Source: Naegleria gruberi
Lineage: Eukaryota
Reading direction: 5' to 3' (one strand)
NCBI GenBank assembly: GCA_000004985.1
Contig: GG738848.1
DNA: 64,000 bases
Part shown: piece by piece, positions 2,970-42,414 of the stretch
Numbering within the stretch: position 1 is the stretch's first letter
Layout of the letters: the number at the start of each line of letters is the position of its first letter
The notes under the pieces: generated by a model
Databases searched by the model: none
What the model was told of the DNA's origin: nothing
Seen by the model: only the letters and a program-made list of their open reading frames with translations
Made by a program: the position numbers and the translations under genes

Positions 2970-3345
2970 ATATAAGTTGAATTAGTAAAATGTAAATAAA
3001 TTGTTTTTAAACAAGTAAAAGAACATGATTCCAAACGTGAATATATAACAAATTAGTATTATAAATTAAGTAAAACATGGAAGAGAACTTTCAGGACCTG
3101 ATTTCACAATCCTTGGAATATGAAATTGTTGGAATTGATTAGTTCCATATCTAGCATTTATTATAGGAATAAGTTTATTTACTACGGCTGGTTGTATTTG
3201 ATTTGACATTGCCACAATCTCTTGACATTGCTCGTCGATTTTCAATCCAGATGGATTTGGTTTTGATCCTTACAGTTAATTTGTTTCTTGGGAGAGAATT
3301 CTAGAAAGAAACGAGAAAGTTTGTTTTGTTGCATTTCAAAAAAAA

Positions 3346-5520
3346 ATGACAACATTTATTATTGCATTAATTTTATTTATTCTACTTTCTACTTGTTTAG
3401 TTTTATATTTGTGGTTTAGACCAGATGAAGATGATGATCATTATATTCCTAATACCAGAAGAACTACTAGAACCACAACTAAAACAAAATCATCAACAGG
3501 ATCATTAAAGTCTTCATCACCAATTAACTCCGATTCAATCATTAAACAAGAAGAAGAAAAACAACAATTAATTAATGATAACAATGATGATGATATTATG
3601 ATTGATGATTTTGTTTATATTAAAAATTCATTCAACAATGGAAAATATAATATTAATAATAGTAATAGTAATAATAATAATACAACAACAATAACAATAT
3701 TTAATAATAGTATTAATAATATTGTAAATTTTAAAAATAGTAAAATGGAAGATTCAAATTTAATATTAAAAAAATTACATTTACGTAATTTAAATAATAT
3801 TGAAAATATTAAATTTGAAACTGATAATATTCCATTAATAGAAACTTTTAAAAATATTGAAAAGTCAACTGGTGATGAAATTAAAAATAACAAATTATTA
3901 ATATTTGAAACTATTATTAGAGGTTATTTAATTAGAAATAGATTTAAAAATATTAATTTATTACATTCCAAAATTAGAAATTATTTATGTAAAAAATATT
4001 TTAATTATAATTTAAATTTAATTAAAAATGTTCAAAGTAAATGTTTTACTAAACATGTTAAAAATAATTTTATAAATCAATTGGAAAATATTAAAAATAT
4101 TCAAAGTGCTTTAAATGGAAATTTAGAAAGAATTAAATTTAATGAAAAAATTGAAAAATCTAAAAATTTAATTTGCAAATTAAAATCAATTAATTTTAAA
4201 AATAATTTAAAAATTGATTTAAATAGAATTATCAACTTGCAATCTATAATTAAAACTTATTTACAAAATAAGAAAAAGAATAATTTAATTAAATCTATTG
4301 AAATGATTCAAAATTATATTAATTGTAACAAAATTAGAAATAATTCTAAAATGGAAATTATAAATATTGAAAATAATTTACCATTTATTATTTCTATATT
4401 TGAATCAAATCAAATTAGAAAAGATTTTAATAATCAAAAATATAAAATTAAAATAATTCAAAATTTATTAAAATCTTTCAAAAATAGAAATGAATTTAAA
4501 TTTAAAATTGAAAATATAAAAATAATTCAAGGATTAATTGAATCTGTCAAAAATAGAAATGAATTTAAACATGAAATTGAAAATACTTTAATTATTCAAT
4601 CAATTATTAGAACATTTTTAGCAAATTCACAAAAATTAGAATTAAATAATAATTTTAATAATTTGATTAAAAATATTAAAATAATTAAAGAATCAAATGA
4701 AATTAGAAATAATTTTAAAAATAATTTAATTAATGTTAAATTGATACAATATTTTTTAAAATCTAAAATTGAAAGAAACAATTTTAATCAAGATTTATTA
4801 AAAATTATAAATTTACAATCTTTAATTCGTAAACATTCCCAAATTAGGGAATATAACAAATCAATTCAAAAAATATTAACATTACAATCTAAAATTAGAA
4901 ACTTTGAATTTAAAAGAGATCATTTTGAAGAAATTGAAACATTTAAAATTCCAAATATGGAATTTGAATTAAATTTTTATTCCAATTATCCTAATATGGA
5001 AATTTACATATTTGCACTATCTAAAATTAAAAAACATTTCGATTGTGAAATTTCCTTAGAAAAAGGTCATAAATTAAAAGGATTTTCAGAAATTAAATTT
5101 AATGGAATTGAAAATGGATTAAAAATTAATTTAAATGAATTTAAATGTGATGAAATTTTTATTTGTACAAAATTTTATTGTAATTTAATGAAAATGAAAA
5201 TTGAAAATCAAGATTTTAAATATATTCCATTTAAGGAACTTTTAAAATTACATTCAAATCATGTTTATATTTATAAAAATGATGAAAATGAATGGAATAT
5301 GAAAATATTAAATTATAATACTAGTAAGAGATTTAATTTAACATCTATTCAATATTATAAACAATTTAAATTATTACAAAATAGTAATAATAATTTAATA
5401 GTTAATAATAGTACTAATACTACTAATACTACCAATGAAACAACATCAGAAGAAGCAACACCAGTAATTGAAAGTGATACTACTACCATCAATCAAGAAG
5501 AAAATACAAATGATGAATAA
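3346..5520 (+). CDS. membrane-anchored multi-IQ-motif (putative calmodulin-binding) protein, 724 aa
   Basis: It is a single long ORF. The N-terminus is a hydrophobic segment, FIIALILFILLSTCLVLYLWF. At least ten IQ-like motifs follow, such as IIRGYLIRNRF, IQNLLKSFKNRNEF, IQGLIESVKNRNEF, IQSIIRTFLANSQ and LQSLIRKHSQIREY. A near-identical direct repeat, aaaaatagaaatgaatttaaa, occurs at about 4483 and 4549. Confidence 0.55.
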   Translation: MTTFIIALILFILLSTCLVLYLWFRPDEDDDHYIPNTRRTTRTTTKTKSSTGSLKSSSPINSDSIIKQEEEKQQLINDNNDDDIMIDDFVYIKNSFNNGKYNINNSNSNNNNTTTITIFNNSINNIVNFKNSKMEDSNLILKKLHLRNLNNIENIKFETDNIPLIETFKNIEKSTGDEIKNNKLLIFETIIRGYLIRNRFKNINLLHSKIRNYLCKKYFNYNLNLIKNVQSKCFTKHVKNNFINQLENIKNIQSALNGNLERIKFNEKIEKSKNLICKLKSINFKNNLKIDLNRIINLQSIIKTYLQNKKKNNLIKSIEMIQNYINCNKIRNNSKMEIINIENNLPFIISIFESNQIRKDFNNQKYKIKIIQNLLKSFKNRNEFKFKIENIKIIQGLIESVKNRNEFKHEIENTLIIQSIIRTFLANSQKLELNNNFNNLIKNIKIIKESNEIRNNFKNNLINVKLIQYFLKSKIERNNFNQDLLKIINLQSLIRKHSQIREYNKSIQKILTLQSKIRNFEFKRDHFEEIETFKIPNMEFELNFYSNYPNMEIYIFALSKIKKHFDCEISLEKGHKLKGFSEIKFNGIENGLKINLNEFKCDEIFICTKFYCNLMKMKIENQDFKYIPFKELLKLHSNHVYIYKNDENEWNMKILNYNTSKRFNLTSIQYYKQFKLLQNSNNNLIVNNSTNTTNTTNETTSEEATPVIESDTTTINQEENTNDE

Positions 5521-5750
5521 AAAGCATTGCTACCAAATAATATTAAGATCATCATGCTGTTGATAAAGGTCAAGGCTTGTTGAAAAATTATTGTGTGTAT
5601 TGGGTTGATGCTTGATCTTAAGAAGTTGACGAGTTTGAAAGACAAGTCATCACCTGTTTGACGAAGGCTTTGAAAAATCAAACTTCTTTCACAATTTTTT
5701 TAATTTTTTTTAAAAAAAACCTTCAAATCTTCATCATTGTACCATAAAAC

Positions 5751-15258: not shown

Positions 15259-18200
15259 TTACTTCAATTCATCATCATTGGATGAAATATTATCAGCATT
15301 GGAAACAGCAACTATTGGAACATAATCAAGAATTGAAATTGCCTTCTTGTTCAATTCTGCAAACAAGTTTGCAACAGAAACGAGTGAAGAGTTTGATGAA
15401 AATAATTGTAACAAATCTTCACAAATATCCATTACAACTTTGTAGTCATTACAAAGAATTGAAAGGAATTTGTGGAAATTTTGTAAATTCTTTGGATTGA
15501 GAGGTTTTTCAAGTTTAACACGTTTAGCGACCTCTCTAAATAAGTTTGTACTTGTTGGAAGATATTGTCTGAGTGAGTTAAAATATTCCAAATCTCCTTT
15601 CTTTACACAGTTATTGTAAATTGGTTCAATCCAATCAGACATGGTGTTAATATCATAAGCATTGGCTATTATCAATGATTCCTCAAAGTCTGCATGATTT
15701 TGAATAAAGGTTCTTGCTTCCTTCAATCCAAGTTCAACAATTATTGGCAAATTTTGGAGCTTCTTCTTATTTGGGAGCTCATTGTAAAACTTCAGTTGAA
15801 GTTTGACGAGAGCAGCCAAGTTAGTTGACTTGACAGCAGTTTGACAACAATCTTCTTTGGCTAATGATGATGCTGCAGATTCAAAATTTTCACAAACAAT
15901 CTTCATAACATGTTCTAGTGGTACATGTTCATCTAAATGTGTAATTGATTGATTACTAGAGACACTTGTTGAAGAATCGTCCTTGTCTGTTAATCTCTTA
16001 TGAATTACCTTGATTCCTTTACATCCTCTATTATACAAATAGGTTCCATATTCTTTTAACATGTTAAATCTCAAGTAAACCATTGCTAACTTTTCATTTT
16101 GTTCAGGGAATTTAGTTTGCACGTACGATGATAAGGCCATTTTCAATTGGTTGTTATTATCATGGTCTGTGTTCTTGTTCTTTTTGAGAATAAGCTCAAA
16201 CTGTTCATTTTCTATTAAGATATCAAAAAGGAACGTAAGTTCTGAAAAGTCAGGAATGGAAACAAGCAACCTGACAATAAGTGAAAAGTCGTGATCATCT
16301 AAAATTTCTTGAATAATTGGTCCTTTGATTCTCTTTAAAATTGACTCTATCCCTTCAAAACTTGAAGACATATGATAACAATGATAAGCTCTAATAATAA
16401 TTTCAACTTTGCATTTCAAGTTCAAAATACCTCTGGATTTCTTCTTGTGTGGGCTATCGTCATTTGTTTCATCATCAGAGTCTATTAATTTGATTAATTG
16501 ACGAGCAATAGATGATGGATCTTTTGCAATATTGGCAAATTCTGCAAATTCATCCATGGTGCATTTGACTAGATCGAATTGTTTTTGTGACTCTTTGAGA
16601 GTTTTGATTGGCTTACTCTTAAGTTGTTGGTTAAATTGTTTAAAGAATGTTGAAGTTTGCACACTTGCTGTATAGGAGCTAGAAAAATCAAAGCTTGAAA
16701 ATGAGCTACCAGAACTTGTTGATAATCTATCATCAAAATCTTCGGTACTTGAGGTACTGTCATTTGCTCCACTGTTATTATTATTGGCAGATGAGGATTG
16801 GAAATAATCTTCAATTAGAATTTCACCTCCTCCCTCTTCTTGATTTTTGAATATGGAAACATCCTCGTTTCTATAATACTCAACATAGGTAGAATAGAGA
16901 TAATTAGCACAAACTTTAGAAGCTCTATCGCTATCAAGATTACGAAGTTGAATGAAGGAAGAACAAACTTTAAGCTTTTCCTTTCCAAACATCATTAGCA
17001 AGAGTTTTAAAACTTCAAAATCATCCTTTGTAATAACACTATCATAACTTAATTGGAGAATTCTTCCAATTTTGTGATTGAGGGCAATAACTTTGAGGAA
17101 GTGTTTGGAACCTTTCATCTTATAACCAAAAGATAAAAGAGACATCTTATCTAATATTTGTTGAATATCGTCAAATTCATCAATATTGAGGACCATATCT
17201 TTAAGAGCAGAATAAATATTTGATGGAAGCGTTTTGGCAGCAAAGCTATTATTTCTCTGATCAGAATCTTGATACATTGTCTTGATTTGTAATTCATAAC
17301 CTTTTGCCAATGTAAGAGCAACTTCAATAATTTGTAAAATATTACTATTATATGAATAGTAATTAGCAAGCTTCTTTGCTTCTTTGTACTGTTCTTTTAG
17401 TAATAAATTATCAATGACCTTATCTAATAATTCATCCATATTGTTGATATTGGTTGGTATATTTGGTTGGTTTGATCGTTTTGAGGAATTTTGAGTATTT
17501 TCAATAAATCTGGCCTCTAATGGAGCTAAAACTATTGAGGCGCCACTTGTAAAAAAGTTATCTGCAGAGTTGGAAAGTAAAACAATACTCTGTACAAGAT
17601 AGTCAATATCTTTTTGATTTCTACATGGAGTTGGATTTGTTTTTGTCATTTCAATACTACCTCTCTTTTTGGTTATATTATAGGTTCCTTCATACCAAGA
17701 CAGTGCAAGATTCAACAAATGTAAAACGCTGGTAGAAGAATATTCTGATTGGTAGAGTATTGCTTGTTCTAAGAAGAATTTAGCACCACTCTCTTGCGGA
17801 TATCTGTGCTTGATGAAAAGATCATTCACTTTTGAATAGGCAGTAATGATATCTGTGGTATTAGTAACATAGAGTGAACGAACTTTTTGAATCTTGTAAA
17901 GAGCTTGAGAGTATGTAACCTTATCATTTGAATAGGTAATCTTCTTTCTATACATGACAATAACTTGTCTTGCCTCTTTGAAACAGTTATTTTCTATCAG
18001 AGATTCAATAAAATGATTTGGATTTCCTGTAAAGACATTGAGGTGATCGATTTCTTGTACTTCTCCAGACTTGAAAACTCTTTCAAATAATGAATTTACA
18101 CTGTACATATTTTCAAACTCATTGGTAACATCAACAATTAACGAGAATTGTGTCTGATGAAGTAACTGGAGATAATTGGTACGTTTGTATTGCGTGTTCA

Positions 18201-21200
18201 AAGACCTGGATAGTTGTTGTGCTAGAGCTGTTGAAGTGGAGACAACCCATGTTAAATCGCCAAAGTTAAAGTTTGGAGCAACCCCACTATTCAAATCCTT
18301 TACAACTTTAACAAATGTCTTCATTTCATCTGTTGCCTTTCCAATATTTTCATGAACATATGATTCATAGAATTGTAAGAATGAAATAATTGGATTATTA
18401 ACATCAAACAATTCAAATGATTGTGTAATATAGTGAACACCGCTTTGTTTTTCATCTTTCAGGAAATTATTTGAACAAAAATCTTGAATATATCTATCAA
18501 TACTTTCTGTCAACTTTCTCATATTTTGTTTCTTAATAGATATGGTTTCATTCTTTTTCATTTCGGTATTTGTTAACTTTTGCTTTAAAGATTGCAAATA
18601 ACATTTCATACAAGTGAAAAGTTCAGACATTGTATAATCTTTAGGGAGATAACAAGTGGCAACTATTGCAAGTAAAGGTTCACTAAGAGCAAGTGATCTA
18701 TTTAACAAATACTCAACAACTTCATCATTTTTCAAGTTGAATTCTTCAGCTCTCATAATTTCTAGGAATGCCTTGAATATAATATCATTTTCTTGATTTA
18801 AATCCGTAAGAATATCGTTATTATTATTCTCTATTGATAACTTAGTTTGAATATGGTCACGTTTTGATTTCATATCTCTCAGAACAATAATTAAAAATTG
18901 TTTGATGACATCAGGCATGAATTCTTCTACAATACTCATAACTGTCTCAATAGGAGCATTAATATCTTGAGCATGATAAAGGAATGAAATCCATTGTCCT
19001 TTCTTGGCAGTAGATTTTAATTGATTTACAAATGGTGGTAGACCATGTAATTCAGAAAACACAGATAAGAGCTTCCAAGGAGAAACATAAATCTTGTGTC
19101 CACTATTTCTCATACCATCTAAAATTTGAACTTGTGATGGATCAGTGGAATTCTTAGAGTTATACTCCTTCTCTAAAAATTCTTTGACTGAAATGTCAAC
19201 AATTAGCATGCTTTCAGTTGCTTCTTCCAACATTTTAAGAATTTTGAATTGAGGATGGGATAAATAATGTTCGTAAACGGAACTTGTAGATTTTGATACG
19301 GAAATTTGTAAAAATTCTTCGACGAGCTTCTTAGAAGGACTATCAACATGTTGTGGTTGATCAACTTGAGCAACAAAAGATGGATGAAAATCAAAAATTC
19401 TTCTAGCTACTTTTGTTTCAACAAGGATGACCTTGGCATACTTATCAGAATACTCTTCAAAATTGCAAAGGTCTATGAACATTTTACATGAGGAAGTGAT
19501 AGCTTGATTAGAAAAATTATTCAATGCAATTTCTCTGACTCTATCACAAAGATTCAATTGGGATTCCTTGTCCATATAATTTGAAAGGGGAAGTTGTTCG
19601 TTCTTTCCTCCATACAGATAAGGTGAGTAAGCATCATCTATTAAATCTTTCAATTCATTATCCTTGGTAGAATTGACTTCACTGAGTAACTCCTTGTAAG
19701 CTTCCAAAGGTCTTTGATTCATCAAATAGTAGGAAATATCAAGAACCTCCTTGATACTTGATTCATATGTCGAAAAGTTGAATAAGTCATCTCTATTGTT
19801 AATCTTAAATTGAGTAGGGGTTAATAAATTAAACTCTCCTTGATTAATTTCGTTACCTTCGTCCATCATTAAAATTTCATCAATAGACATATCAATATGT
19901 GTATGTTTAAGCATATCAAATAGAGAAATATCTTTTTGGCATGAAACAATGTTACCTCTTGCAATTTCGTTATTGCAAAGGTTGATAGTTTCATTTTCAG
20001 ATTGACTCTCCTTTGATAGGGTTGGGTTTTCAGAATGCTTTGTACTTTTTTCATTAAAAAGTGCAGAATGGAAGGTTGGATATGGCTGAAGCGCTTTGGA
20101 TAAGTAAGAACTGTTCAAGTAATGCTCACTTGTAATTGGTTCTTCCAAAGATTCATGAAGAGTTTTTGGAGAATACATTTGTGTGGAGAGAGCCATGATT
20201 GGATTTTCATTAAGAATGCTATTCAAATTAATCTTTTGATTATCATTATTTCTAAGTTTAGATTGGGCGTTAATGAATGATAAATTAAACATATCCTTCT
20301 TATTGGAGAGTAAGAACATATTTAACCATGATGGTCTCTTATCTTCAGTGAAGGATTTATCTAATGCATCCCAAATATTAAACTTGTCAATATACCTAAA
20401 GCAAATACTAGGAATATTTTTCTCAATACAGAAAGAAATAAAGTCTTTGTGGAATTTGCTCATTTCTCCCACTGGATGTAAATAAGTTGTGTTGATTGGG
20501 TTGGAAACAATATCCTTATCAGAATCGAACATATTGGTAGGATCACATTCAATAGACAAAGTTTCTATTAAATTAGATGGAATATCATTTGAAAAAAGTT
20601 GATAGGTTGCACAAAATCTTTGCAACAAGGAAATAAAATCCTTTGTATCTTCTCTAATGAATATTCCTCTGAATGCAAGACTATTCAACAATAGCTCTTT
20701 CATCATTGGACTACAAAATTGTAATTGTTCTCTGACAATGTTGATAACTTCTTGACAACTTTCAACAACCTGTTGCATCTTGGAAGAGTAACCTTCAGGA
20801 ACATAGAGAATATCTCCATCTTCTGTTTGATAACATTTCACACTTTCATTCTTCTTTTTCAAGTTTCCGTAGTATTTAATTGCACTCTTTGACCATCTCA
20901 CCAGTCCAACAAAATCATGATGAGCAATACAAAAGGCAAGCTTTGATTTGTTGGACTCATTATCGTGATAATCTTTTTCAAGTAGAATTCTCTCTCTTGT
21001 ATGTTTATCCCATCTCAATAACCAACTCAATTTAGATACAAAGTAAGAGGACTTTGACTTTGATAGTGCTAAAATTTTCTTGTTAGTGCTAGATATTGAA
21101 GCACTTCTCATTCTTGATTGAATAGACACTTTACGTTTAAAAACTAGGCTATCTGAACTATCTGAAGATACTGGTGATTCAACAACAACACTACTTGTAA

Positions 21201-24200
21201 TGTGGTGGAGTGGCGTAAGTTGTGCATCATCAGAAATATCTCCAATAACAATGTTTTTTTCCACTTGATCAAAATCTTCATCTGTGAAAGGATTATACTG
21301 TCCGTATGGAAGCACCTTTTCAAGTACTTTTTGAATGGATGTATCAGGATAAAGTTCTTCCAAAAGTTGAAGAAATTCTATTACATCTTGTTCCTCTTCT
21401 GAAAGCTTCTTCATTCTCTTCAATTCCTTAATTAAATGGTTTCTAATATTCTTGTCGATCGTATTAAAAGCCAATTCTCTTAAATGTTCTGTAACATCTT
21501 CTCCCAAGTTTTCTAGCATTTTAATAGCAAGATTATATTCACCAGAAACTAAATGTTCATATATTACAATAAAGGAAAGTTGTTGAAAGCTTTCAAAATC
21601 TTCAATTTCGAAAAAGTTGTTAGTATTGTCTTCATCCTCACTATCACATTCAGCTGCAGACTTGTGCTTTACGGTTCTATTTTTCAAGAATGAGTAACCA
21701 AGCGAAACAAGACCCTTAGTCAAACAATCAACAATTATGGACTTATTTTCCATATTCTTCCACTTGTGATAAAGTTCTTCATTGCCTCTCATTAAAATTT
21801 TGTCAAACATTTCCATTTCATTCTTTTCGTCTGCATCAGAAATTTCATTCTCCTCGGCATCATAATTATACATATCTTCTTCATTGTTAATCGATACACC
21901 TGTCTTCATTTCGGAACCGAAGAAGGATAAATCATTAAAATTATCACCTCCAGAAAAAGACTTTGTTAAAATTAAGTTAAATCCTGTTGTATAAATTATC
22001 TAACTTACCAAATCCAGGTCTATTCTCTTCTCTGAACGAAGAGTTTCACTTCTCTTGCTTTGAGAATTGAATGAACTAAGTAAATCTGCTGCTATTGGTT
22101 CATTTACTTCTTCTTCCTCTTGATTATTATATATCAAATATGATCTCAATAGAGAAATGATACTAGATAAAAGCAAAACTTCTTCTGGTTTTGACAAAAC
22201 TTGCTTGGAACTCATGATATCCTCAATGATTGAAATAGTGTTAGAAGATGGATTATTAATAATGTCATTTGAAGCACTTGTAATTTCATCAATTTCAGAA
22301 ATGGTTTGACTTTCCATAAACTTGTCTAACTTTTTGGCATTCTTAATCTCCAACTTTTTAATCACAGAATCAGTACTTTCAATCTTAATAGGTACTCTCT
22401 TATCTTTGAATATAAATATAGAATCAAAAGTATTTGGCTCTTCTTCACCCAAATTATATTCATTCTTTGAACCCAGCTCTAAAATTCGTTTTTCAATCAA
22501 TGAGAGAATGTAAGATATGGCTGTAGTGATAGTATGAATTTTAAATTCACTATCTTTTGAAAATTTAGTGTCTTGAATAAACTTGGCAATTATATAGCAA
22601 ACATTTAACTCTTGCTCCGGATCAAGATGTTGCAAAGTATCTTGTACAACAGCAAGTTCTCTATTTCTCAAACCAAGCTCTATAGCATGAACTGCTAATG
22701 ATTTTCTGTCCCAGCCATTAAGATCACATAACCTCTCAGCTAATCTTTGTCTTTCGTACTTGATAAGATTATTCAAAAGAATGCTCTTGTTGGTGTTTAC
22801 ATTAATAAAGAAAACTCCATGTTTGTGGGCATCCTCTGTTATGTAAAAGCAATGTACATCTGAGCAGTAAATTTGGGAAATGAAATTACCCTTTTCCAAA
22901 CATATTGCTGTGGTTTTTCCTGAAAGCATGTCATAAACTTGAAGGAGTCTTATATCAGCCTCCAACAAGTCAAAAATGATGTAGCACTTGTTATTTGTTA
23001 TGATATAGTCATGAATTTTAGAATTCTTTTCAACTGCATGAATAACAGTAATGCCTTCATCAATGTGGCTGATATTTTCATCTTTCCTAGGAGAAAGCAT
23101 AAAGTTGTGACTTGATGTTCTCGAAATTAAAGAGTCTTTTCTCGAAAATGACTCTAAATTACTATCTAAACTACCAATTGATCCTCTTTTGATTAACAGT
23201 GAATCCCTCATTATGGTTTCCTTTCGTTGTTTGTTTGCAACTACAAATGGATAATTGCTCTTTGTATCTTTCTCAGTACCAAAATCATCACCTGAATCGA
23301 TGAGAACACTAGTAGATCTCTTTTGAGGTTCTGTATTATCAAACCAGTGAGATTGATAAAAATTCTCTGAGGTGTAACAGAAAGGTAAAAGTGATTCTAT
23401 TGGCTCAATAGTATCCGTTTTCTTTTCACTTTGATTGAGCAGTTCATTGAAGGAAAGTTCTTCGTCCTCCTCATCACCTTCAATATCTTCCTCTTCTTCT
23501 TCATCGCCTTCAGTATCATCTTCTTCATCAAAATCTTCTTCTGTTCGTTGAACATGCTCTTCTTCTTTAACATTTTCCGTTTTTAAATCCAAATCTATAA
23601 TATATACATCATTGTCACATGTTGCTGTTAAAAGTAATCCGTTATTCGATAATTTAAAGTTACATAAATTTACAATATCACAATTTACAAATCCAACTTT
23701 CTTCTTTTTAGAGATATCCCAAATATCAACTTTGTTTAGCATTTCAGAAGGGCTGGAAGAAAGTGAGCAAAAAAGAAACTGTTGATATGCCAATAATTCT
23801 CTATATGTATGATCCTTTGGAGCTTGTATTGTAAAATTACTACAAATTTGCAATAAAAAGTTCTGTAGAGAAACTTCACAAACATGATTGTTATCGAATA
23901 ATATTAAAAAGTGACGATCTTCAAGAATTGGAAGTATTGCTTTCATGGAGACCTCTTCTCCAAAATTAGCATTCTTGATGGAGTTTGTAATTTTTGAGAA
24001 TGATATTGTGAATTTTTTGACAATCCATGTTACTCTTTCATTCTTGAATTTAAATATTGTTTCCGAATCGTCTGTTAAGAAATTAATTAAAATTTTCTCA
24101 TTCCTTTCTGATGGACTAAACGTCTCATCTTGGTCACTTTTAGAAAAGAATATAATTTCCAAAGTATCATCCCTAGCAACAAGACAATAACACGAGAATT

Positions 24201-35651: not shown

Positions 35652-38256
35652 TTATTGCAAGATGAGATGAACTGTAATTTCCTCTTGTTCTGAAGAAATA
35701 TTAAGGATTCTCATCTTTTCATTCGATTTTAATAGAGAGGCTAGAGGAGTAGTCAAGTATGATTGCTCGTTATGTTCTGAGAATATTGATGGAGCAAATA
35801 AAGAACCAGTTTCTCCCTTGGAATTTGTAATGAAAATTGTGTCCATCTCCTGATTGAGTGTTCTAGCTTCCTTCACCAATTCCTCAATGGTATCTGTAAA
35901 TTTCATATGAATTTCTTTAATATTATCAGAAATGTTCTCATAATGAATGTCTAAATCATCCAAACAGATATTATACTTGATATAGGAAAGTTTCTTTGAA
36001 TATTGATTCAACTGTTGAAGATATTGAAGTAAATGAAAACATTGAATTGATGCTGCCACGGATGTGGTAGTAATCAGAGCTGGATGAATTGCTCCAGCTA
36101 TTTTCTTTGCTTTGAAAAACTCAATTGGCTTACAAAGTTTCCTCCCAAAAAGGAAAAAGTTTTCTGCCCTAATATTGGAAGTGTCTTGAACGAACTGAAC
36201 CATCAAATCATCATCTTTTTCATATACTAAAGGTTTGAATGGTGAATTGACCTTCATATTTGAGTGAGTCATCTCTTCACTTTTTTCAGGAATAGTTATT
36301 TGGTGGTGAAACTTATTTTCATATTGTTGCAATTCTTCCCTTGTCAATGGCATGAATGGAAATTCAACACTTGATACAGATCTTGTTGATGGAATCAAAT
36401 CATTATTATCAAGATGTCTGTACAGTAAATAAATAGTAGTATTCATAAATGAGAAGTGACTCTCCTTTTCATAATTCAATTTAGCAGGACGTGGAGTAAA
36501 CTCTACCGATTCATTAAGGAAATATTGAATCTTGTTATCTTCATTCAATTCATCCAAATTGCAAAGTGTATTTTCTTGGAATGGACTGACAAATAACTGA
36601 TTAAACACCTCACGTGCAAGCACATAGAGGTGATTATTGACATTTCCAAGTTCAACCCTTTCTAATAATCTTGGGACCATTCTTGTGAAATAATCTTCGT
36701 ATTTCATTTTACTCCACATGATTAAATCTTCATGTTTTTCAGGATTGCTTTTCAGTGTGCAGGATGTTCTGATCTCTTCTCTTTCTTCCTCCTCTGTTTT
36801 TTGATTCTCATTGTGGAAGGGCTTTGTTGAGGCGTAGAGATGGAATGAATTTTGTGAGTAAAATCCTTGAGTTCCAGAGTTGATGAATGGAATTTTGTAA
36901 AGATTACACTTGTGAGAGAGGAATTGTCTTGCATGGTCATTATCTACTGCACCAAAAACAACGTCAATGGAAGACCAGAATGAATCTTGATTAAGATATG
37001 ATTCACTGTCACTGGTCAACTTTTCTTCAAACGATTCAATATTGACCTTTGAATTAAAGTAGTTGACCATCTTTTTCAATATTTGAGATTTCTTTGATCC
37101 AATATCACTTTGAGAGAAGAAAAATTGACGATTAAGATTTGTCAACTCAATACTATCCATATCTGTCACGTACATTGAACCTCTAGTAGTACATGCATTC
37201 ATGACCATCAAGTTCTTTACCAATTCACAACCTATTGCTCCAGCACCAACAATTAAAATATTCAAATCCTCAAGACCTAGCTCTTGAATTTTGAGTTGGC
37301 TTGGAGCCAAAGATAATTGATCAAAAAAGAAATAATATGGGTGCTTTTCTTTTGACAGCTCCAAAATCTGACACAGAATCTCATTTGCTGTAATTGCAGC
37401 AAAAAAACTTGTCTGTTTGTTCATGAGTAATAAAATACTTTGTAAAAGCTTACCATTGCATAATTGGAAGTTTCTCTAACTTTCTCGTGTTGAATGAATT
37501 TTTCATGATAGAAATTTAACAATTGATCTTTAACTTCATTCTCGTCATATGAGTCAATTGGATTTTCCATTTCTTCCATCTTTTCTGTAAATAAATCAAA
37601 CAAGGTGTTGACATCCATATTGTCAATAAAATTAGAAACAAGAGTTGAGAATTCTTCTAATGAAGTGTTCTCAAATATTGCATTGAGAATAGGACCATCT
37701 AAACAGCTTCTGTGAAAATGAGGAATTTGCTCCGTTTCACTTTTTGGAATAGTCAATATTCTTCCAATAAGCCCACTCACTTGAACACTAACTATTGTAT
37801 TAGAAAGATCATTAAAATTTGATTTTTCAATTCCACATTTAACAATACACTTTTAACCATTAGAGATAAAACCTAAACTTTCACTTACTGAGAACTGTTT
37901 CAAATTATTAGAAACTTCATCTGCTGAAACTTGCTTCACATTTGAGTCAGGGTTTAATCGGTGAATTTCTTCTTGGAAATTTTCTCCTTTCACATAACTC
38001 TGATCAAAATTGTAAGCTATTAGAATAGAAGAAGAATACTTACATCAAAATGGATTGTTGACAAATCTCCTTCTTCAATAGCAACAAGAGCCATGGCTTT
38101 GAATCCTAAAAGGATTAAATTTTTGGTCAACTCGACCAACATTGAACAACTTTGAGTATTCCTTTGGTTGTACTCAATCATCAAGTTACTATTATGAATT
38201 TTACTTGTAGAATCCTGCCCTAAAGCATACTCTTGCCTGTCCCATAAGTTTGACAT
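35652..38256 (-). CDS. compact UBA1-architecture E1 ubiquitin-like activating enzyme, 4 exons, about 826 aa
   Basis: Exons are 38256..38044, 37999..37889, 37849..37454 and 37412..35652. Introns are 44, 39 and 41 nt, all GT-AG and all phase 0. The N-terminus LWDRQEYALGQ...LVELTKNLILLGFKAMALVAIEEGDLS matches the first (inactive) adenylation domain of E1s. The second ThiF domain is LNILIVGAGAIGCELVKNL...ELTNLNRQFFF...VDNDHAR. The catalytic-Cys box TSCTLKSNPEKHEDLIMW aligns with UBA1 PICTLKNFPNAIEHTLQW. The region between the two adenylation domains is too short to hold an FCCH domain. A UFD-like C-terminal domain is present. Confidence 0.7.
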
Positions 38257-38273
38257 TTTTTTGATCGAATGTT

Positions 38274-38280
38274 AACGTGA
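38274..38280 (+). promoter_or_regulatory. AACGTGA motif copy 1, in the shared E1/UEV1 bidirectional upstream region
   Basis: The sequence is gttAACGTGAttt, 18 bp from the E1 ATG on the minus strand and 56 bp before the UEV1 ATG. Confidence 0.5.
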
Positions 38281-38335
38281 TTTCCCAAGTCACTTCACTT
38301 TTCAAACTAAACTAATTGAAAAAAATTGTATTACA

Positions 38336-39064
38336 ATGTCTTCATCACGTTTGAGAAGGATCAAAAACGATCTTACAGAGGTACAACAAAATGCTTCTCT
38401 TCCTCCTTTATTAACATTTACACAGACTGAAAATTCTAGTATCATTCTCTTTAGTTTTAACTTGGACGAAACATCAAGTCTTTATGCAGGTGCCAATTTT
38501 CAGATTGAAGTTTCATTCCCAGAAAATTATCCCCACAAACCTCCTTCTTTCACATTCAAACACACCGTTCCATATCATTTCCTTGTTGATCAAATTAATG
38601 GAAAGGTAATTGGCCTCTCAAAACTTTCGACATGGTCAATGCTATTCACTTTACAATCAATATTTTCTGATCTCTACTCAAAATTTGTAAATGAACCAAG
38701 TCAAGAAGATGCTGAACAATGTGGTGTTAATGAGGATATGATTACAGAATATAGAAACACTCCACAAATCTACAGAGAAAAAGCAAGAAACTCTGTCAGA
38801 AAGTTGCAATTAACTGTAATTGAAAATCCTCTTGATTCAAATGAAATGAAGGATGAAGAATCTACTGAATCGAATGAAACGATTCATGAAGTAGTAGTTG
38901 ATGAAAATAACTTGCAGCCAAGTAATCCAATTTTGGAACAACCACTTGATTCAAGATTTGTTAATTCCAGTAATCACCACAAAATTGTTTCTCATGAAGA
39001 TGAATGGAATTATGAATACGGCTTGTATCATTTAAATATGAGATATGGAAATTACAATCAATAA
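38336..39064 (+). CDS. UBC-fold E2 variant (UEV) lacking catalytic Cys, 242 aa
   Basis: The E2 N-terminal helix is SRLRRIKNDLTEV, followed by FPENYPHKPPSFTFKHTVPYHFLVDQINGKVIGLSKLSTWS. The HPN-x-G-x-I-C-L core is present, but the Cys position is not conserved. The only Cys in the protein lies in the C-terminal tail. Confidence 0.65.
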   Translation: MSSSRLRRIKNDLTEVQQNASLPPLLTFTQTENSSIILFSFNLDETSSLYAGANFQIEVSFPENYPHKPPSFTFKHTVPYHFLVDQINGKVIGLSKLSTWSMLFTLQSIFSDLYSKFVNEPSQEDAEQCGVNEDMITEYRNTPQIYREKARNSVRKLQLTVIENPLDSNEMKDEESTESNETIHEVVVDENNLQPSNPILEQPLDSRFVNSSNHHKIVSHEDEWNYEYGLYHLNMRYGNYNQ

Positions 39065-39114
39065 ATATTTTATTCAGAATATATTGTACATTTGTTTTTG
39101 TAACAGATTATTGC

Positions 39115-39945
39115 TTATTGAAATAACAATCTATTTTCAATTTCGTGCAAATCCTCTTTGGTTTGTGTTGGAGCTACAGGCAATGAACACTTGACATATG
39201 CACCATGAGTTGTTCCAGTTGCTTCTGTACCACTACACTTGAACGGCCATTTACCAGTATTTGTATTGTAAAGAGACAAACAAGCATGACAAAAAACAGC
39301 ATTACATCTTGGACAGTGAGTATGCTTGCACCTGTCTAACTTTCCATCAGATGATGCTTGTCTTTCACAATAATTTCCACAATTAACACATAATCTTGCC
39401 AAAGGAACAACTATTTCTTGATTGGATAGATTAATCTTGGCAGTTACAGAGGATCTAGTTGTCAAGGCAGTGATCAAGGGATCTTCATTAGAACATCCAT
39501 TTCCACAAATTCCTTCACCATTCTTCCATTGATTGCCACAAATGAAACAAAAGTCAAATTTGCAAACATCACAACTCAATCTAACATCGCTGGTGTTTCT
39601 TCTAATGAAGTGATTCTTACACTTATTACAAGTAGTTGCTCTCTTGATCTTGTAATGAATATCATTCAATGCTGAATCAAACTCTTCAATTTTATCATAA
39701 TCGATATTGGCTTGATTGACCCAATTCATTGAAATGGTTTCGCCACAATTAGTTTCATCACTTCCAGTTACATTCTTATTGGAACCATAACAAACCATTG
39801 CTGTTCCTTTCGACAAGTTTTGTAAATTTTCAACAAGACAGTCTTGACAAATATAATGTTGACATTTAAGTTTCAATAATTGTTGAGTGCCAAGACAATA
39901 GAAGCATTTAGACATTTTTTTGACTTGAGAGTTCCCAAATGTCAC
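39115..39945 (-). CDS. RING-between-RING (RBR) E3 ubiquitin ligase, 276 aa
   Basis: RING1 reads CFYCLGTQQLLKLKCQHYICQDC...C..C. The IBR reads CNKCKNHFIRR...CDVCKFDFCFICGNQW. The Rcat reads CVNCGNYCERQASSDGKLDRCKHTHCPRCNAVFCHAC, which matches HHARI [20 protein letters not shown], with the catalytic Cys in DRCKH. Confidence 0.75.
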   Translation of the reverse strand: MTFGNSQVKKMSKCFYCLGTQQLLKLKCQHYICQDCLVENLQNLSKGTAMVCYGSNKNVTGSDETNCGETISMNWVNQANIDYDKIEEFDSALNDIHYKIKRATTCNKCKNHFIRRNTSDVRLSCDVCKFDFCFICGNQWKNGEGICGNGCSNEDPLITALTTRSSVTAKINLSNQEIVVPLARLCVNCGNYCERQASSDGKLDRCKHTHCPRCNAVFCHACLSLYNTNTGKWPFKCSGTEATGTTHGAYVKCSLPVAPTQTKEDLHEIENRLLFQ

Positions 39946-39977
39946 TAGTCAAGCTGCACTTCAAACAGCTTTTTCGA

Positions 39978-39984
39978 AACGTGA
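39978..39984 (+). promoter_or_regulatory. AACGTGA motif copy 2, in the shared RBR/UBL upstream region
   Basis: The sequence is cgaAACGTGAtg. Confidence 0.5.
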
Positions 39985-40001
39985 TGAAACTTATACACTC
40001 A

Positions 40002-40008
40002 AACGTGA
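40002..40008 (+). promoter_or_regulatory. AACGTGA motif copy 3
   Basis: The sequence is caAACGTGAta, about 80 bp upstream of the UBL ATG. Confidence 0.5.
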
Positions 40009-40086
40009 TACACCCCAAAACGCAACACAAGAATTCAATAAATAGATTTTAAATCACAGAATATTAATATCTCAATTCATAAAAAA

Positions 40087-40356
40087 ATGTCCACTCCATT
40101 AAACGTTTCCATTCAACAAGGTGTCCATACTAAAGTACTCTCAATCAGTCAAACTGCAACAGTGAAAGACCTTGCAACCATGTACAAATCCCAAACTGAA
40201 CTTAAAGAATTCTACTTTTTGCATAGAACCACCAGACTTGAAGAAACTACTATTGTTTCTCATATTATTAAACATCCAAACCAAAAGTTAGTAGTTGTTG
40301 GAATTGCTAAAGGTGGTTCTGAAGAAGGAAGAGCATCAATCTTGTCTCTTATTTAA
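40087..40356 (+). CDS. small ubiquitin-like (beta-grasp) protein with internal Gly-Gly followed by a 12-aa C-terminal tail, 89 aa
   Basis: The sequence MSTPLNVSIQQGVHTKVLSISQTATVKDLATMYK...KLVVVGIAKGG|SEEGRASILSLI has the length and hydrophobic periodicity of a ubiquitin fold. It loosely resembles the UFM1 core ([11 protein letters not shown] compared with KVLSISQTATV). GG at positions 76-77 followed by a short extension is the arrangement seen in processed UBL precursors. Confidence 0.5.
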   Translation: MSTPLNVSIQQGVHTKVLSISQTATVKDLATMYKSQTELKEFYFLHRTTRLEETTIVSHIIKHPNQKLVVVGIAKGGSEEGRASILSLI

Positions 40357-40513
40357 ACCTAGTTGAGTTTCGTCAAGATATTGAAATAAACTCTCTTTTT
40401 TCAATTAAATCGAAATATTAATCATTTCTGCTGCTTATGAAATCAAGCCGTGTGATCAAACGAGAATCTAATTTTGGTGCCACTGGTGCAAATGATTAAG
40501 TTAGGAAGTCTGA

Positions 40514-40520
40514 AACGTGA
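40514..40520 (+). promoter_or_regulatory. AACGTGA motif copy 4, 17 bp upstream of the UEV2 ATG
   Basis: The sequence is tgaAACGTGAaa. Confidence 0.5.
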
Positions 40521-40536
40521 AAAAAACAATTAAAAA

Positions 40537-41016
40537 ATGTCAAAACAAAGAAGAATTCTGAATGAAGTTGCTGAAGCCAACAAGAACAATCATCCAAAGA
40601 TCAAATTTGAAATTTCCCAAGAGAATTTACATGGTTGGAATTGTTCATTTAAAGGTCCAGATAACACTCCCTATCAAGATTTGCAATTTGAAGGAACTCT
40701 CTGTCTTCCGTAAGTTTAGTTTGGATTAGTTTTGCTAATATTTTGCTTGGTTAGAAATGATTTTCCTTCATCAAGACCAACCTTTGTATTCTCTTCCAAA
40801 ACAATTCCATACCACATCAATGTAGACGATAGTGGTGTAGCTTCTGTCTCTTTGCAATGGACTCCCACACTCACAGGAATAGTTTTTGTCGAAAGTGTAA
40901 TTAACATGTTAGAAACTCCACAACCAACTTGTTCTGTTAGTGATGAAAGATTCAAATTATATCAAAGTAACAAAGATCAATATCAAAAACAAGCCAGCAA
41001 ATTCCTCCAAGAATAA
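40537..41016 (+). CDS. Mms2/Uev1-like E2 variant (UEV) lacking catalytic Cys, 2 exons, 144 aa
   Basis: Exons are 40537..40709 and 40755..41016, with a 45-nt intron GTAAGT...GGTTAG that is phase 2 and keeps frame. The sequence is RRILNEVAEANKNN...WNCSFKGPDNTPYQDLQFEGTLCLPNDFPSSRPTFVFSSKTIPYHINVDDSGVASVSLQWTP. The UBC fold is present with Ala at the active-site Cys position. It resembles Mms2 KINMNGINNSSGMVDARSI. Confidence 0.65.
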
Positions 41017-41022
41017 ACGTGA
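41016..41022 (+). promoter_or_regulatory. AACGTGA motif copy 5 (overlaps the UEV2 stop codon)
   Basis: The sequence is taAACGTGAtc. Confidence 0.45.
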
Positions 41023-41037
41023 TCATTGTAAACTTGA

Positions 41038-41044
41038 AACGTGA
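41038..41044 (+). promoter_or_regulatory. AACGTGA motif copy 6, 18 bp upstream of the USP ATG
   Basis: The sequence is gaAACGTGAga. Confidence 0.5.
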
Positions 41045-41061
41045 GACGAATCTTAAAAAAA

Positions 41062-42414
41062 ATGTTAGAAAGAGGTTTTGAAAATGTTGGCAATACCTGT
41101 TATTTGAATTCTTCTTTGGTAACACTCCTCTGCATTGATCAGTTCAAGAGTCTTATCAACACCAGTAAATCACCAATTTGTAAACTAACAAGTCAACTGT
41201 TGGAAAAAAAAATGTCCATGAAGGAGTTTGTCAATATTTTGCAGAAAATGTTTGATTACTTTCTAAAAGATAAGGTTTGTTTATAATACTGATAATTTTG
41301 ATTGAATTTGTGCAGAATTTCATGTTGAGATCTCAAAATGATTCATCTGTAAGTTTCTAATGCTTTACAAATCGAAATTAATGACAGGAAAAAGGAATTC
41401 ATTACAAAGTTGTTACAAATCATAAAGCTCGAAAAGAACCATGATTTATCATTCATGGATGGAGAATTAGAAACAAGAATTAGTTGTACAAATTGTGGAG
41501 ATATAGATCAGTACGTTTCTCCATTTATTGGGCAAAAAGTTTGCGTTCCCTATTCACAACCATTGAATTCTTTACTTGAAAGCTTTTTCTTGGTTAGTGA
41601 GCCTTGTAGTCAATGCTCTGGAACATTTAGTACCTCTCAATTCTTTAAGGGGACAATTCCACACTGGTTATTATTTCAATTCTACTATACAGAAGCATCG
41701 ACAAGAGTTGAACTTGATGAGAATGAATTAGTTTGCTCTCTTTCAGTCAAAGAGGGTGAATGTGCAGAGTATGATATTAAGGCAATGACTCTTCGTTGTG
41801 GAGGAGATCTTAAATATGGACATTATGTCAGTGCTGTTTTTTTCAACAAGGGTGTTAGAGTTTACAATGACAGTTTTATTAGAGATTATCCAAACTTTAA
41901 AAGTTTTTGGATGGAATATTCGGGTTGGCAAATCAAAGACATTCTTCTTGAATCAATTGTATATGAAGATGTTGTTGCAGAGGAAACAGAACAACAAACA
42001 AAAAAAGGATTCCTACGACGTGTACGAGGTTTTGTTCAAAAAATCAAAAAGCAAACCAAGTTTAAGAAAAAAGAAACGATTGGACTCAAAAAAGCACTCA
42101 TTCAATACCGGAAGCAATTCATTGAAGAAATTGAAAAAAGAAATAGCCATTTTGAAACGGACACATGCTTTTTACTATTGTTATACCAAATTTGGGAACT
42201 TATAATTAGATATCTGGAATTATTGTTTAAGCTTGCTGCTGGTGTTGAAGTTAGACTCTGGCAATCAACATCTATTTTCTCACCAAAATATTTCACAGAT
42301 TCACAAATCTATTTTGCAGATATTGAATTTCATTTTCAAGACAACCAACCCCAAAACATTCGAAAGCCAGTTGAAGAAGAAATCAAATCACTTGAATTTG
42401 TATATCACCTCTAA
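41062..42414 (+). CDS. USP-family ubiquitin-specific protease (deubiquitinase), 3 exons, about 423 aa
   Basis: Exons are 41062..41274, 41316..41348 and 41388..42414. Introns are 41 and 39 nt (GTTTGT...TGCAG and GTAAGT...GACAG), both phase 0. The Cys box is GFENVGNTCYLNSSL. The QQD-box-like segment is QNDSSGKKEFITKLL. The His box is YDIKAMTLRCGGDLKYGHYVSAVFFNKGVRVYNDSFI. Confidence 0.75.

Follow-up and report, generated by a model that had tools for sequence, protein, structure and literature searches.

In eukaryotes, ubiquitin-like pathways are as a rule old and shared by many lineages, and their genes are scattered. In the ISG15 system of vertebrates (UBA7, UBE2L6, HERC5/ARIH1 and USP18), a lineage-restricted, fast-evolving modifier is served by a dedicated single-chain E1 of UBA1 type and a dedicated USP-family deconjugase, and the dispersed genes are induced as a unit. 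Genes for such a pathway lie together in the Caldiarchaeum operon, which comprises E1, E2, RING-type E3, ubiquitin and Rpn11 (PMC5654768). Here we analyse a 64-kb stretch of DNA (hereafter the window), of which positions 35652-42414 are nuclear DNA of Naegleria gruberi NEG-M with six contiguous genes: an E1 activating enzyme, two E2-fold proteins called UEV1 and UEV2, a small, probable RBR-type E3 ligase, a candidate ubiquitin-like modifier (UBL) and a USP-family cysteine protease. We propose, with a probability of roughly 0.55, that these genes form a co-regulated cassette restricted to N. gruberi and serving a private ubiquitin-like modifier.

The six genes that a first-pass annotation had placed here are all present, with the positions and strands it gave. 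The intron-bearing genes (E1, UEV2 and USP) were spliced by hand, and the Pfam scores of the spliced UEV2 and USP products are far above those of single exons; six GT-AG introns lie in the cluster. The spacers between E1 and UEV1 (79 base pairs, bp) and between UEV2 and USP (45 bp) are exact, and the tight packing, previously remarked on, is normal for the compact genome of N. gruberi. No ubiquitin-system gene was found among the ~25 further open reading frames (ORFs) scanned in the window, and six in a row are therefore far beyond chance.

A shared promoter element points to common control. The heptamer AACGTGA, extended to approximately (A)AACGTGA(T), occurs 10 times in the 64-kb window against 3.3 ± 1.7 in shuffled sequence, and 0 of 100 shuffles reach 10. 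The cluster's four promoter regions, ~500 bp in all, account for seven of the ten copies, as compared to 0.024 expected there at the rate outside the cluster (Poisson P ~8e-16). The divergent promoter between E1 and UEV1 (38274-38351) carries copies at 38274 (plus strand) and 38345 (minus strand), and that between RBR and UBL (39978-40008, plus strand) carries copies at 39978 and 40002. One further copy (40514-40520, plus strand) is located 23 bp before the UEV2 ATG, and the region upstream of USP (41016-41044, plus strand) holds copies at 41016 and 41038, the USP ATG being at 41062. Because all four promoter regions carry the heptamer, which is a candidate transcription-factor binding site, joint activation of the six genes as one regulon is probable, and the heptamer is the best evidence for it. 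We considered AACGTGA as a general Naegleria promoter element and rejected this, as only three copies (window positions 22, 3034 and 18857) occur outside the cluster in 57 kb with ~25 genes. The copy at 3034 is found ~310 bp upstream of an ORF with an IQ motif (3346-5520).

Part of the locus recurs on a metagenome contig (ENA ERZ929261, 2,710 bp) with 95.5 % DNA identity to window positions 37709-40357. It contains the 5' end of the E1 gene, UEV1, RBR and UBL in the same order and orientation as in the window, with coding regions that are 91-99 % identical. The synteny check proposed in the first-pass annotation thus recovers the UEV1-RBR-UBL order together with the E1 5' end, but only in a sister strain: the contig shows that the ORFs are maintained and does not represent independent synteny. 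The 79-bp spacer between E1 and UEV1 (38257-38335, contig positions 555-633) is 100 % identical between the strains, which suggests a densely constrained promoter, and the UEV1-RBR and RBR-UBL spacers are about 81 % identical. In the RBR-UBL spacer, the AAACGTG cores fall in conserved islands of otherwise diverged sequence.

The E1 gene (35652-38256, minus strand; exons 38256-38044, 37999-37889, 37849-37454 and 37412-35652) encodes a compact UBA1-type enzyme of 826 amino acids. Pfam detects ThiF (1e-42) and UBA_E1_SCCH (2e-8), and the matches in the PDB comprise yeast Uba1 (2.7e-47), human UBA1 (4e-40), UBA6 (1e-36), UBA7 (6e-35), SAE2 (8e-26) and UBA3 (2e-12); by sequence, the protein is a member of the single-chain UBA1/UBA6/UBA7 group. 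Its active adenylation domain holds GAGAIGCE at residue 296, NLNRQ at 332 and AVDN at 395, and the alignment to yeast Uba1 covers GAGAIGCE, DMDSIELTNLNRQF and AVDNDHAR residue for residue. The catalytic Cys458 is located in SCTLKSNP, aligned to LCTLRSFP of yeast Uba1, within a reduced SCCH domain. The inactive adenylation domain is degenerate and only weakly recognisable: the Pfam scan of this N-terminal region returned no match, and residues 3-135 are colinear with UBA1 51-222 at a weak BLASTP score (pairwise E 0.02). The BLASTP alignment to an aphid UBA1 is colinear, the N-terminal domain included, and the previous description as a compact E1 with two adenylation domains is a fair one. E1_FCCH, E1_4HB and E1_UFD, all three present in the UBA1 matches, gave no Pfam match; ~100 amino acids of acidic helical sequence occupy the place where FCCH would be, and the C-terminal ~105 amino acids, to which no domain is assigned, may be a UFD.

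The hand-spliced E1 is 98 % identical to the NCBI entry 'ubiquitin activating enzyme E1 [Naegleria gruberi]' (EFC49389 / XP_002682133, 773 amino acids), which starts at Met39 of our model. The 38 additional codons upstream include LWDRQEYALG, matching the UBA1 start LYSRQLYVLG, and our model also retains 15 residues (TSFFAAITANEILCQ), skipped in the NCBI model, whose aligned counterpart in UBA1 is the conserved segment TSFIGGIVAQEVMK. The NCBI model probably uses a wrong acceptor; the differences between the two models lie in window regions 37368-37453 and 38142-38256.

Searches for relatives in large databases covered E1, UBL and RBR. When the NCBI E1 model was run exhaustively with HMMER against 1.84 billion representatives, the protein itself scored 1724 bits and the next protein 172 bits, and in a search of 90 % clusters identity falls from 98 % straight to 27 %, the latter also being its identity to UBA1. 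The next relatives are taxonomically incoherent UBA1s, including mite, MMETSP protist and metagenomic sequences. By these scores the E1 is an orphan and not an ordinary housekeeping orthologue, and, assuming that the proteomes of N. fowleri and N. lovaniensis are within the searched databases, it has no orthologue in either. For UBL and RBR, no relatives beyond the sister-strain contig were found in the databases searched. Hence, the alternative raised in the first-pass annotation, that the genes are orthologues of dispersed housekeeping genes, is not borne out. A compact E1 of 759 amino acids on another metagenome contig was considered as an analogue and set aside, because the gene is UBA1-like and ordinary, and the contig is unrelated and looks viral. 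This giant-virus-like contig (JGI metagenome 3300045986, contig Ga0496761_000345) is intron-less and tightly packed; its E1 (3028-5577) stops before the UFD, the following ORF of 80 amino acids may be the split-off C-terminus, and the neighbours are a PRA-PH protein and ORFs that lack matches.

At the other end of the cluster, the USP gene (41062-42414, plus strand; exons 41062-41274, 41316-41348 and 41395-42414) encodes 421 amino acids. The Pfam UCH family is matched at 4e-15 (56.5 bits, cutoff 23.9) over profile positions 1-235 of 254, with a Cys box (GNTC13YLNS), a His box (GH225Y), N240-D241 (YNDSF) and a CxxC...CxxC zinc ribbon. The score and the intact Cys and His boxes uphold the assignment as a USP deubiquitinase, and the protein is very divergent, since phmmer against PDB sequences gave no match. 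Residues ~260-421 (window 41840-42414) form a C-terminal extension of ~160 amino acids, rich in Lys over one stretch and containing a strongly hydrophobic helix (CFLLLLYQIWELIIRYLELLFKLAAGV). The helix could be a membrane anchor, or else the stretch could contain a missed intron.

The RBR gene lies on the minus strand (39115-39915; 266 amino acids), exactly matching the model NAEGRDRAFT_78190, which is annotated as 'hypothetical protein'. Its ATG at 39915 is a more likely start than the GTG at 39945 adopted earlier. The full-length protein scores sub-threshold and was scanned against Pfam in three segments. The N-terminal segment matches RING models (2e-4 to 6e-3, below cutoff), the middle segment matches IBR_1 with 28.9 bits (cutoff 27), and the C-terminal segment gives weak second IBR matches (0.07-0.09), an order that equals RING1-IBR-RING2, with RING1 at C4-C57 and IBR at C96-C141. 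RING2/Rcat reads C176-x2-C179...C196-K-H198-x2-C201-x2-C204-x4-C209-x2-C212. We take C196-x-His198 to be the candidate catalytic pair, its spacing having been matched by eye to the RING2 of HHARI. The sister strain retains each of the 25 cysteines, at a ratio of non-synonymous to synonymous substitution rates (dN/dS) of 0.32, and the best match in the PDB is ARIH2 (0.02, not significant). The assignment as an RBR is probable.

The candidate modifier precursor (40087-40356, plus strand; 89 amino acids) is not in the reference annotation. It has no cysteine and ends in ...VVVGIAKGG, with the Gly-Gly at residues 76-77, followed by a tail of 12 amino acids (SEEGRASILSLI). In ubiquitin, the Gly-Gly is at 75-76. 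Neither the N. gruberi reference proteome nor a collection of 15 billion catalogued proteins contains the exact sequence, and the sole match among 5.8 billion clusters is an ORF of 86 amino acids on the sister-strain contig with 87 % amino acid identity. In this copy the Gly-Gly is kept and a 3-residue in-frame indel follows directly after it (GGSEEGRASILSLI as compared to GGLRASILSLI). Against Pfam, both variants score best with the beta-grasp domain OTU1_UBXL (2e-3 and 7e-4), though not above its cutoff.

Both E2-fold proteins match UQ_con above the gathering score, UEV1 at 4e-17 and UEV2 at 1.4e-22 over the whole domain, and on these scores they are bona fide UBC folds. UEV1 (38336-39064, plus strand; 242 amino acids) exactly matches NAEGRDRAFT_62733, annotated as 'predicted protein', and has an acidic C-terminal tail; UEV2 (40537-41016, plus strand; exons 40537-40709 and 40755-41016, intron 40710-40754) has 144 amino acids. 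The nearest solved relatives of UEV2 are the active E2s UBE2A/Rad6 (9e-16) and UBE2D, contradicting the earlier label 'Mms2-like', and the best PDB matches of UEV1 are generic active E2s, including UBE2H and UBE2L3, with UBE2L6 also present. For each of the two, the top 60 solved relatives include no UEV protein such as Mms2, Uev1 or Tsg101. When five human E2/UEV sequences are aligned with them by MAFFT, UEV2 reads Y-H-I-N...G-V-A-S where the human sequence reads Y-H-P-N...G-S-I-C; it thus retains the HPN His and Asn but carries Ser in place of Cys. In UEV1 the corresponding stretch is Y-H-F-L...G-K-V/I, with the HPN Asn lost and Val/Ile at the catalytic Cys column.

Each protein has a cysteine elsewhere in the fold. 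Cys117 of UEV2 is opposite Ser120 of UBE2A in the HMMER alignment, a column occupied by Asp117 of UBE2D2 in the MAFFT alignment; the role of this conserved Ser/Asp site in the catalytic cleft of E2s has been described (PMC4604453). Cys129, the sole cysteine among the 242 residues of UEV1, is in the same loop. BLASTP aligns UEV1 and UEV2 at 24 % identity and sets C129 opposite C117 within a shared C-[GS]-V-[NS]-[ED]-[DE], and in the MAFFT alignment UEV1 has Asp at the cleft site followed by a 4-residue insert that holds C129. The pattern was spotted post hoc; it is nonetheless not what a dead UEV would be expected to look like.

Taken together, the locus is probably a lineage-restricted, dedicated UBL cassette, and the catalytic motifs of E1, of USP and, by pattern, of RBR are all intact. 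We envisage the following mechanism. The USP would trim the 89-residue precursor after Gly77 and would also reverse conjugation. The E1, with its ATP-binding and catalytic motifs intact, would adenylate the exposed Gly-Gly end and load the modifier onto Cys458, prior to hand-over to the E2-fold proteins. The RBR would then bind the loaded carrier via RING1, take the modifier onto Cys196 of the Cys-x-His pair and transfer it to substrates. The E2-fold step is the weak link, because neither UEV1 nor UEV2 has a cysteine at the canonical position, and the mechanism of the RBR family needs a thioester donor. The complete toolkit originally claimed for the cluster is accordingly not supported, no protein encoded here having a cysteine at the canonical E2 active-site position. 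We tentatively prefer, at less than even odds, that the thioester cysteine has been relocated to the loop of the catalytic cleft, as Cys117 of UEV2 and/or Cys129 of UEV1. The full version of this proposal, in which UEV1 and UEV2 would be working E2s of a new type with a migrated cysteine, in a self-contained, promoter-coordinated cassette that arose de novo in the N. gruberi lineage, is unlikely.

Several observations weigh against the cassette or against the relocated cysteine. The first group concerns the fold of the modifier. The AlphaFold2 model calculated from the single sequence has a predicted local distance difference test score (pLDDT) of 46; in this low-confidence model the elements are ordered beta-beta-alpha-beta-beta-beta, with order and approximate positions as in ubiquitin. 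A Foldseek search with the model returned no ubiquitin-like match in the PDB, only noise, hhalign of the two UBL variants with seven ubiquitin-like proteins gave a non-significant E of 0.14, Pfam detects no ubiquitin match, and phmmer against PDB sequences gave no useful match. The evidence for a ubiquitin fold of the 89-residue protein is only circumstantial: of the small ubiquitin-fold protein with an internal Gly-Gly that had been predicted, the ORF, the Gly-Gly and the tail are present, but the fold finds no backing in Foldseek or hhalign. The dN/dS of UBL between the strains, ~0.5 from 15 substitutions, suggests weak constraint. For UEV1 (38336-39064, contig positions 634-1362), 8.5 non-synonymous and 1.5 synonymous changes give a dN/dS of ~1.4, a value from 10 substitutions and too few for a test of constraint. 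As to the ligase, the assignment combines sub- or barely-threshold matches with a pattern read by eye, and its AlphaFold2 model, from a two-sequence alignment, is unusable (pLDDT 33). For the E2-fold step, the canonical active-site column (~8 residues after HPN) lacks a cysteine in both proteins, Cys129 of UEV1 sits four residues past the Ser/Asp column in the MAFFT alignment and thus off that column, and no other case of an E2 cysteine that has moved is known to us. Finally, the sole synteny partner is nearly the same organism.

The missing canonical cysteine is also the starting point of the principal rival, in which the cassette is dedicated as proposed, and UEV1 and UEV2 are dead cofactors comparable to Mms2/Uev1 for Ubc13, binding the modifier or the RBR and steering linkage or substrate choice, with the thioester carried by a canonical E2 encoded elsewhere. 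To our knowledge, E2-fold proteins without the cysteine are always non-catalytic, and UEV1 has in addition lost the HPN Asn and lacks detectable purifying selection between the strains. Against this stand the top 60 PDB matches, which are active E2s with no specific Mms2/UEV resemblance, and the HPN His and Asn of UEV2, which true UEVs have lost. A private E1 normally has a private E2, as in the pairs UBA7-UBE2L6 and UBA6-USE1, and it would be odd to cluster two cofactors without the enzyme; moreover, the cleft-loop cysteine common to paralogues of 24 % identity is left unexplained. We give cofactors of this kind roughly the same weight as the relocated cysteine. A variant that dispenses with the E2 thioester, direct transfer from E1 to RBR with the E2-fold proteins as adaptors, has only a small chance of being correct. 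The probability left over falls to the cassette not being a functional conjugation pathway at all.

One such outcome would be decay, with the cluster as the relic of an old duplication of ubiquitin-pathway genes that now drift to pseudogenes, and the small ORF no real modifier. The extreme sequence divergence of every member, the loss of the E2 cysteine from both E2-like proteins, a dN/dS of ~0.3-1.4 between the strains on few substitutions, and a UBL that is unannotated and has no detectable ubiquitin homology would all fit. Decay is, however, difficult to reconcile with ORFs and splice sites that are all intact in a genome of 32 % GC, in which random ORFs are short and one E1 exon spans 590 codons, with the retained catalytic motifs of E1, of USP and, by pattern, of RBR, or with the conservation of all 25 RBR cysteines. 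It also leaves unaccounted for a promoter between E1 and UEV1 that is 100 % conserved as compared to 81 % for the other spacers, and the presence of AACGTGA at all four promoters; we consider a relic improbable. More remote still is a horizontally acquired island with a ubiquitin-like system of its own, whose source could be, for instance, a giant virus or a mobile element. The patchy distribution, with apparent absence outside N. gruberi, would agree with it, viruses and prokaryotes typically cluster genes by function, and giant viruses of amoebae carry ubiquitin-system genes. The cluster nevertheless looks native. Its GC content and GC content at third codon positions are within the range of the neighbouring genes, codon frequencies correlate at r = 0.95, and GC is ~32 % across the whole window. 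It has six GT-AG introns, and a search for direct or inverted repeats at its flanks turned up nothing beyond short AT-rich chance matches. Scans sensitive to close relatives only, and to no others, found none of E1, USP and RBR in IMG/VR and none of E1 and USP in the JGI metagenomes, and E1, UEV1 and UEV2 are closest to eukaryotic ubiquitin enzymes, the nearest E1 relatives being eukaryotic UBA1s. Of the earlier suggestion of a lineage-specific or horizontally acquired pathway, the lineage restriction probably holds, but transfer is very unlikely. Because the cluster genes are fast-evolving and native-looking, the most likely origin is duplication and rapid divergence of the host's own ubiquitin machinery.

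The surroundings of the cluster are ordinary and unrelated, and its edges are clean, with cathepsin B on the left and beta-hexosaminidase on the right. Also encoded in the window are G-alpha, a Ras-like GTPase, an RCC1-like protein, an EGF-repeat protein, ribophorin II, M16 peptidases, CAP, XPF/ERCC4, a kinase, spatacsin, LRR and MFS proteins and Rad9. The spatacsin gene (15259-21909, minus strand) is a single ORF of 2216 codons with a Spatacsin C-terminal domain (1.3e-89), a heterolobosean homologue of spatacsin (SPG11).

The proposed cassette, in which writer, carrier-like proteins, ligase, tag and eraser are adjacent and share a promoter element, appears young and species-restricted. It would offer a compact and genetically tractable case of a modifier system born from duplicated ubiquitin machinery, and would test how far an E2 active site can rearrange, with Cys changed to Ser and a new Cys at the Ser/Asp site of the cleft. 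If the relocated cysteine works, the criteria for recognising 'inactive' E2 variants in genome surveys would have to change, and if the cassette with the migrated cysteine is real, it would represent a private, operon-like ubiquitin-like system built of eukaryote-type parts, the first of its kind. Surveys based on annotation are blind to the cluster because the modifier gene is unannotated and two enzyme genes go under the names 'predicted' or 'hypothetical'; no earlier description of a Naegleria ubiquitin-like cluster or of its locus tags was found in the searchable literature.

Among described pathways, the ISG15 system shares with the proposed N. gruberi cassette a lineage-restricted, fast-evolving modifier made as a precursor with Gly-Gly plus tail, a single-chain UBA1-type E1 of its own and a USP-family deconjugase of its own. 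Unit-wise induction would be a further likeness, suggested here by the shared promoter element, and enzymes of that system are among the solved relatives of the cluster proteins, UBE2L6 (with UBE2L3) for UEV1 and UBA7 for E1 (6e-35). The two differ in that ISG15 genes are dispersed, UBE2L6 has a normal catalytic Cys and ISG15 is a recognisable di-ubiquitin, whereas the Naegleria genes are adjacent, the modifier has no detectable similarity to ubiquitin and the E1 lacks FCCH.

Like Ubc13-Mms2/Uev1, the cluster places E2-fold proteins without the active-site cysteine inside a putative conjugation pathway, but it has no active partner E2, no specific Mms2/UEV similarity, a UEV2 that keeps the HPN His/Asn and a cleft-loop Cys in both proteins. 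The probable ligase would agree with Ariadne-type RBRs (ARIH1/ARIH2 with UBE2L3) in its putative RING1-IBR-RING2 order and the candidate Cys-x-His in RING2; unlike these, it has merely 266 amino acids and no Ariadne, UBA-like or other accessory domains, and only its isolated IBR segment passes threshold (IBR_1). In overall arrangement, the cluster resembles the Caldiarchaeum operon and the bacterial Bil/Bub-type operons, in that the genes for activator, carrier, ligase, modifier and protease are neighbours, presumably with joint expression. The prokaryotic operons, in contrast, use small ThiF/MoeB-type E1s, JAB/Rpn11 proteases and small RINGs, whereas the parts of the Naegleria cluster are of eukaryote type (a UBA1-type E1 with two domains and SCCH, an RBR, a USP), and its genes have their own promoters and introns and reside on a nuclear chromosome.

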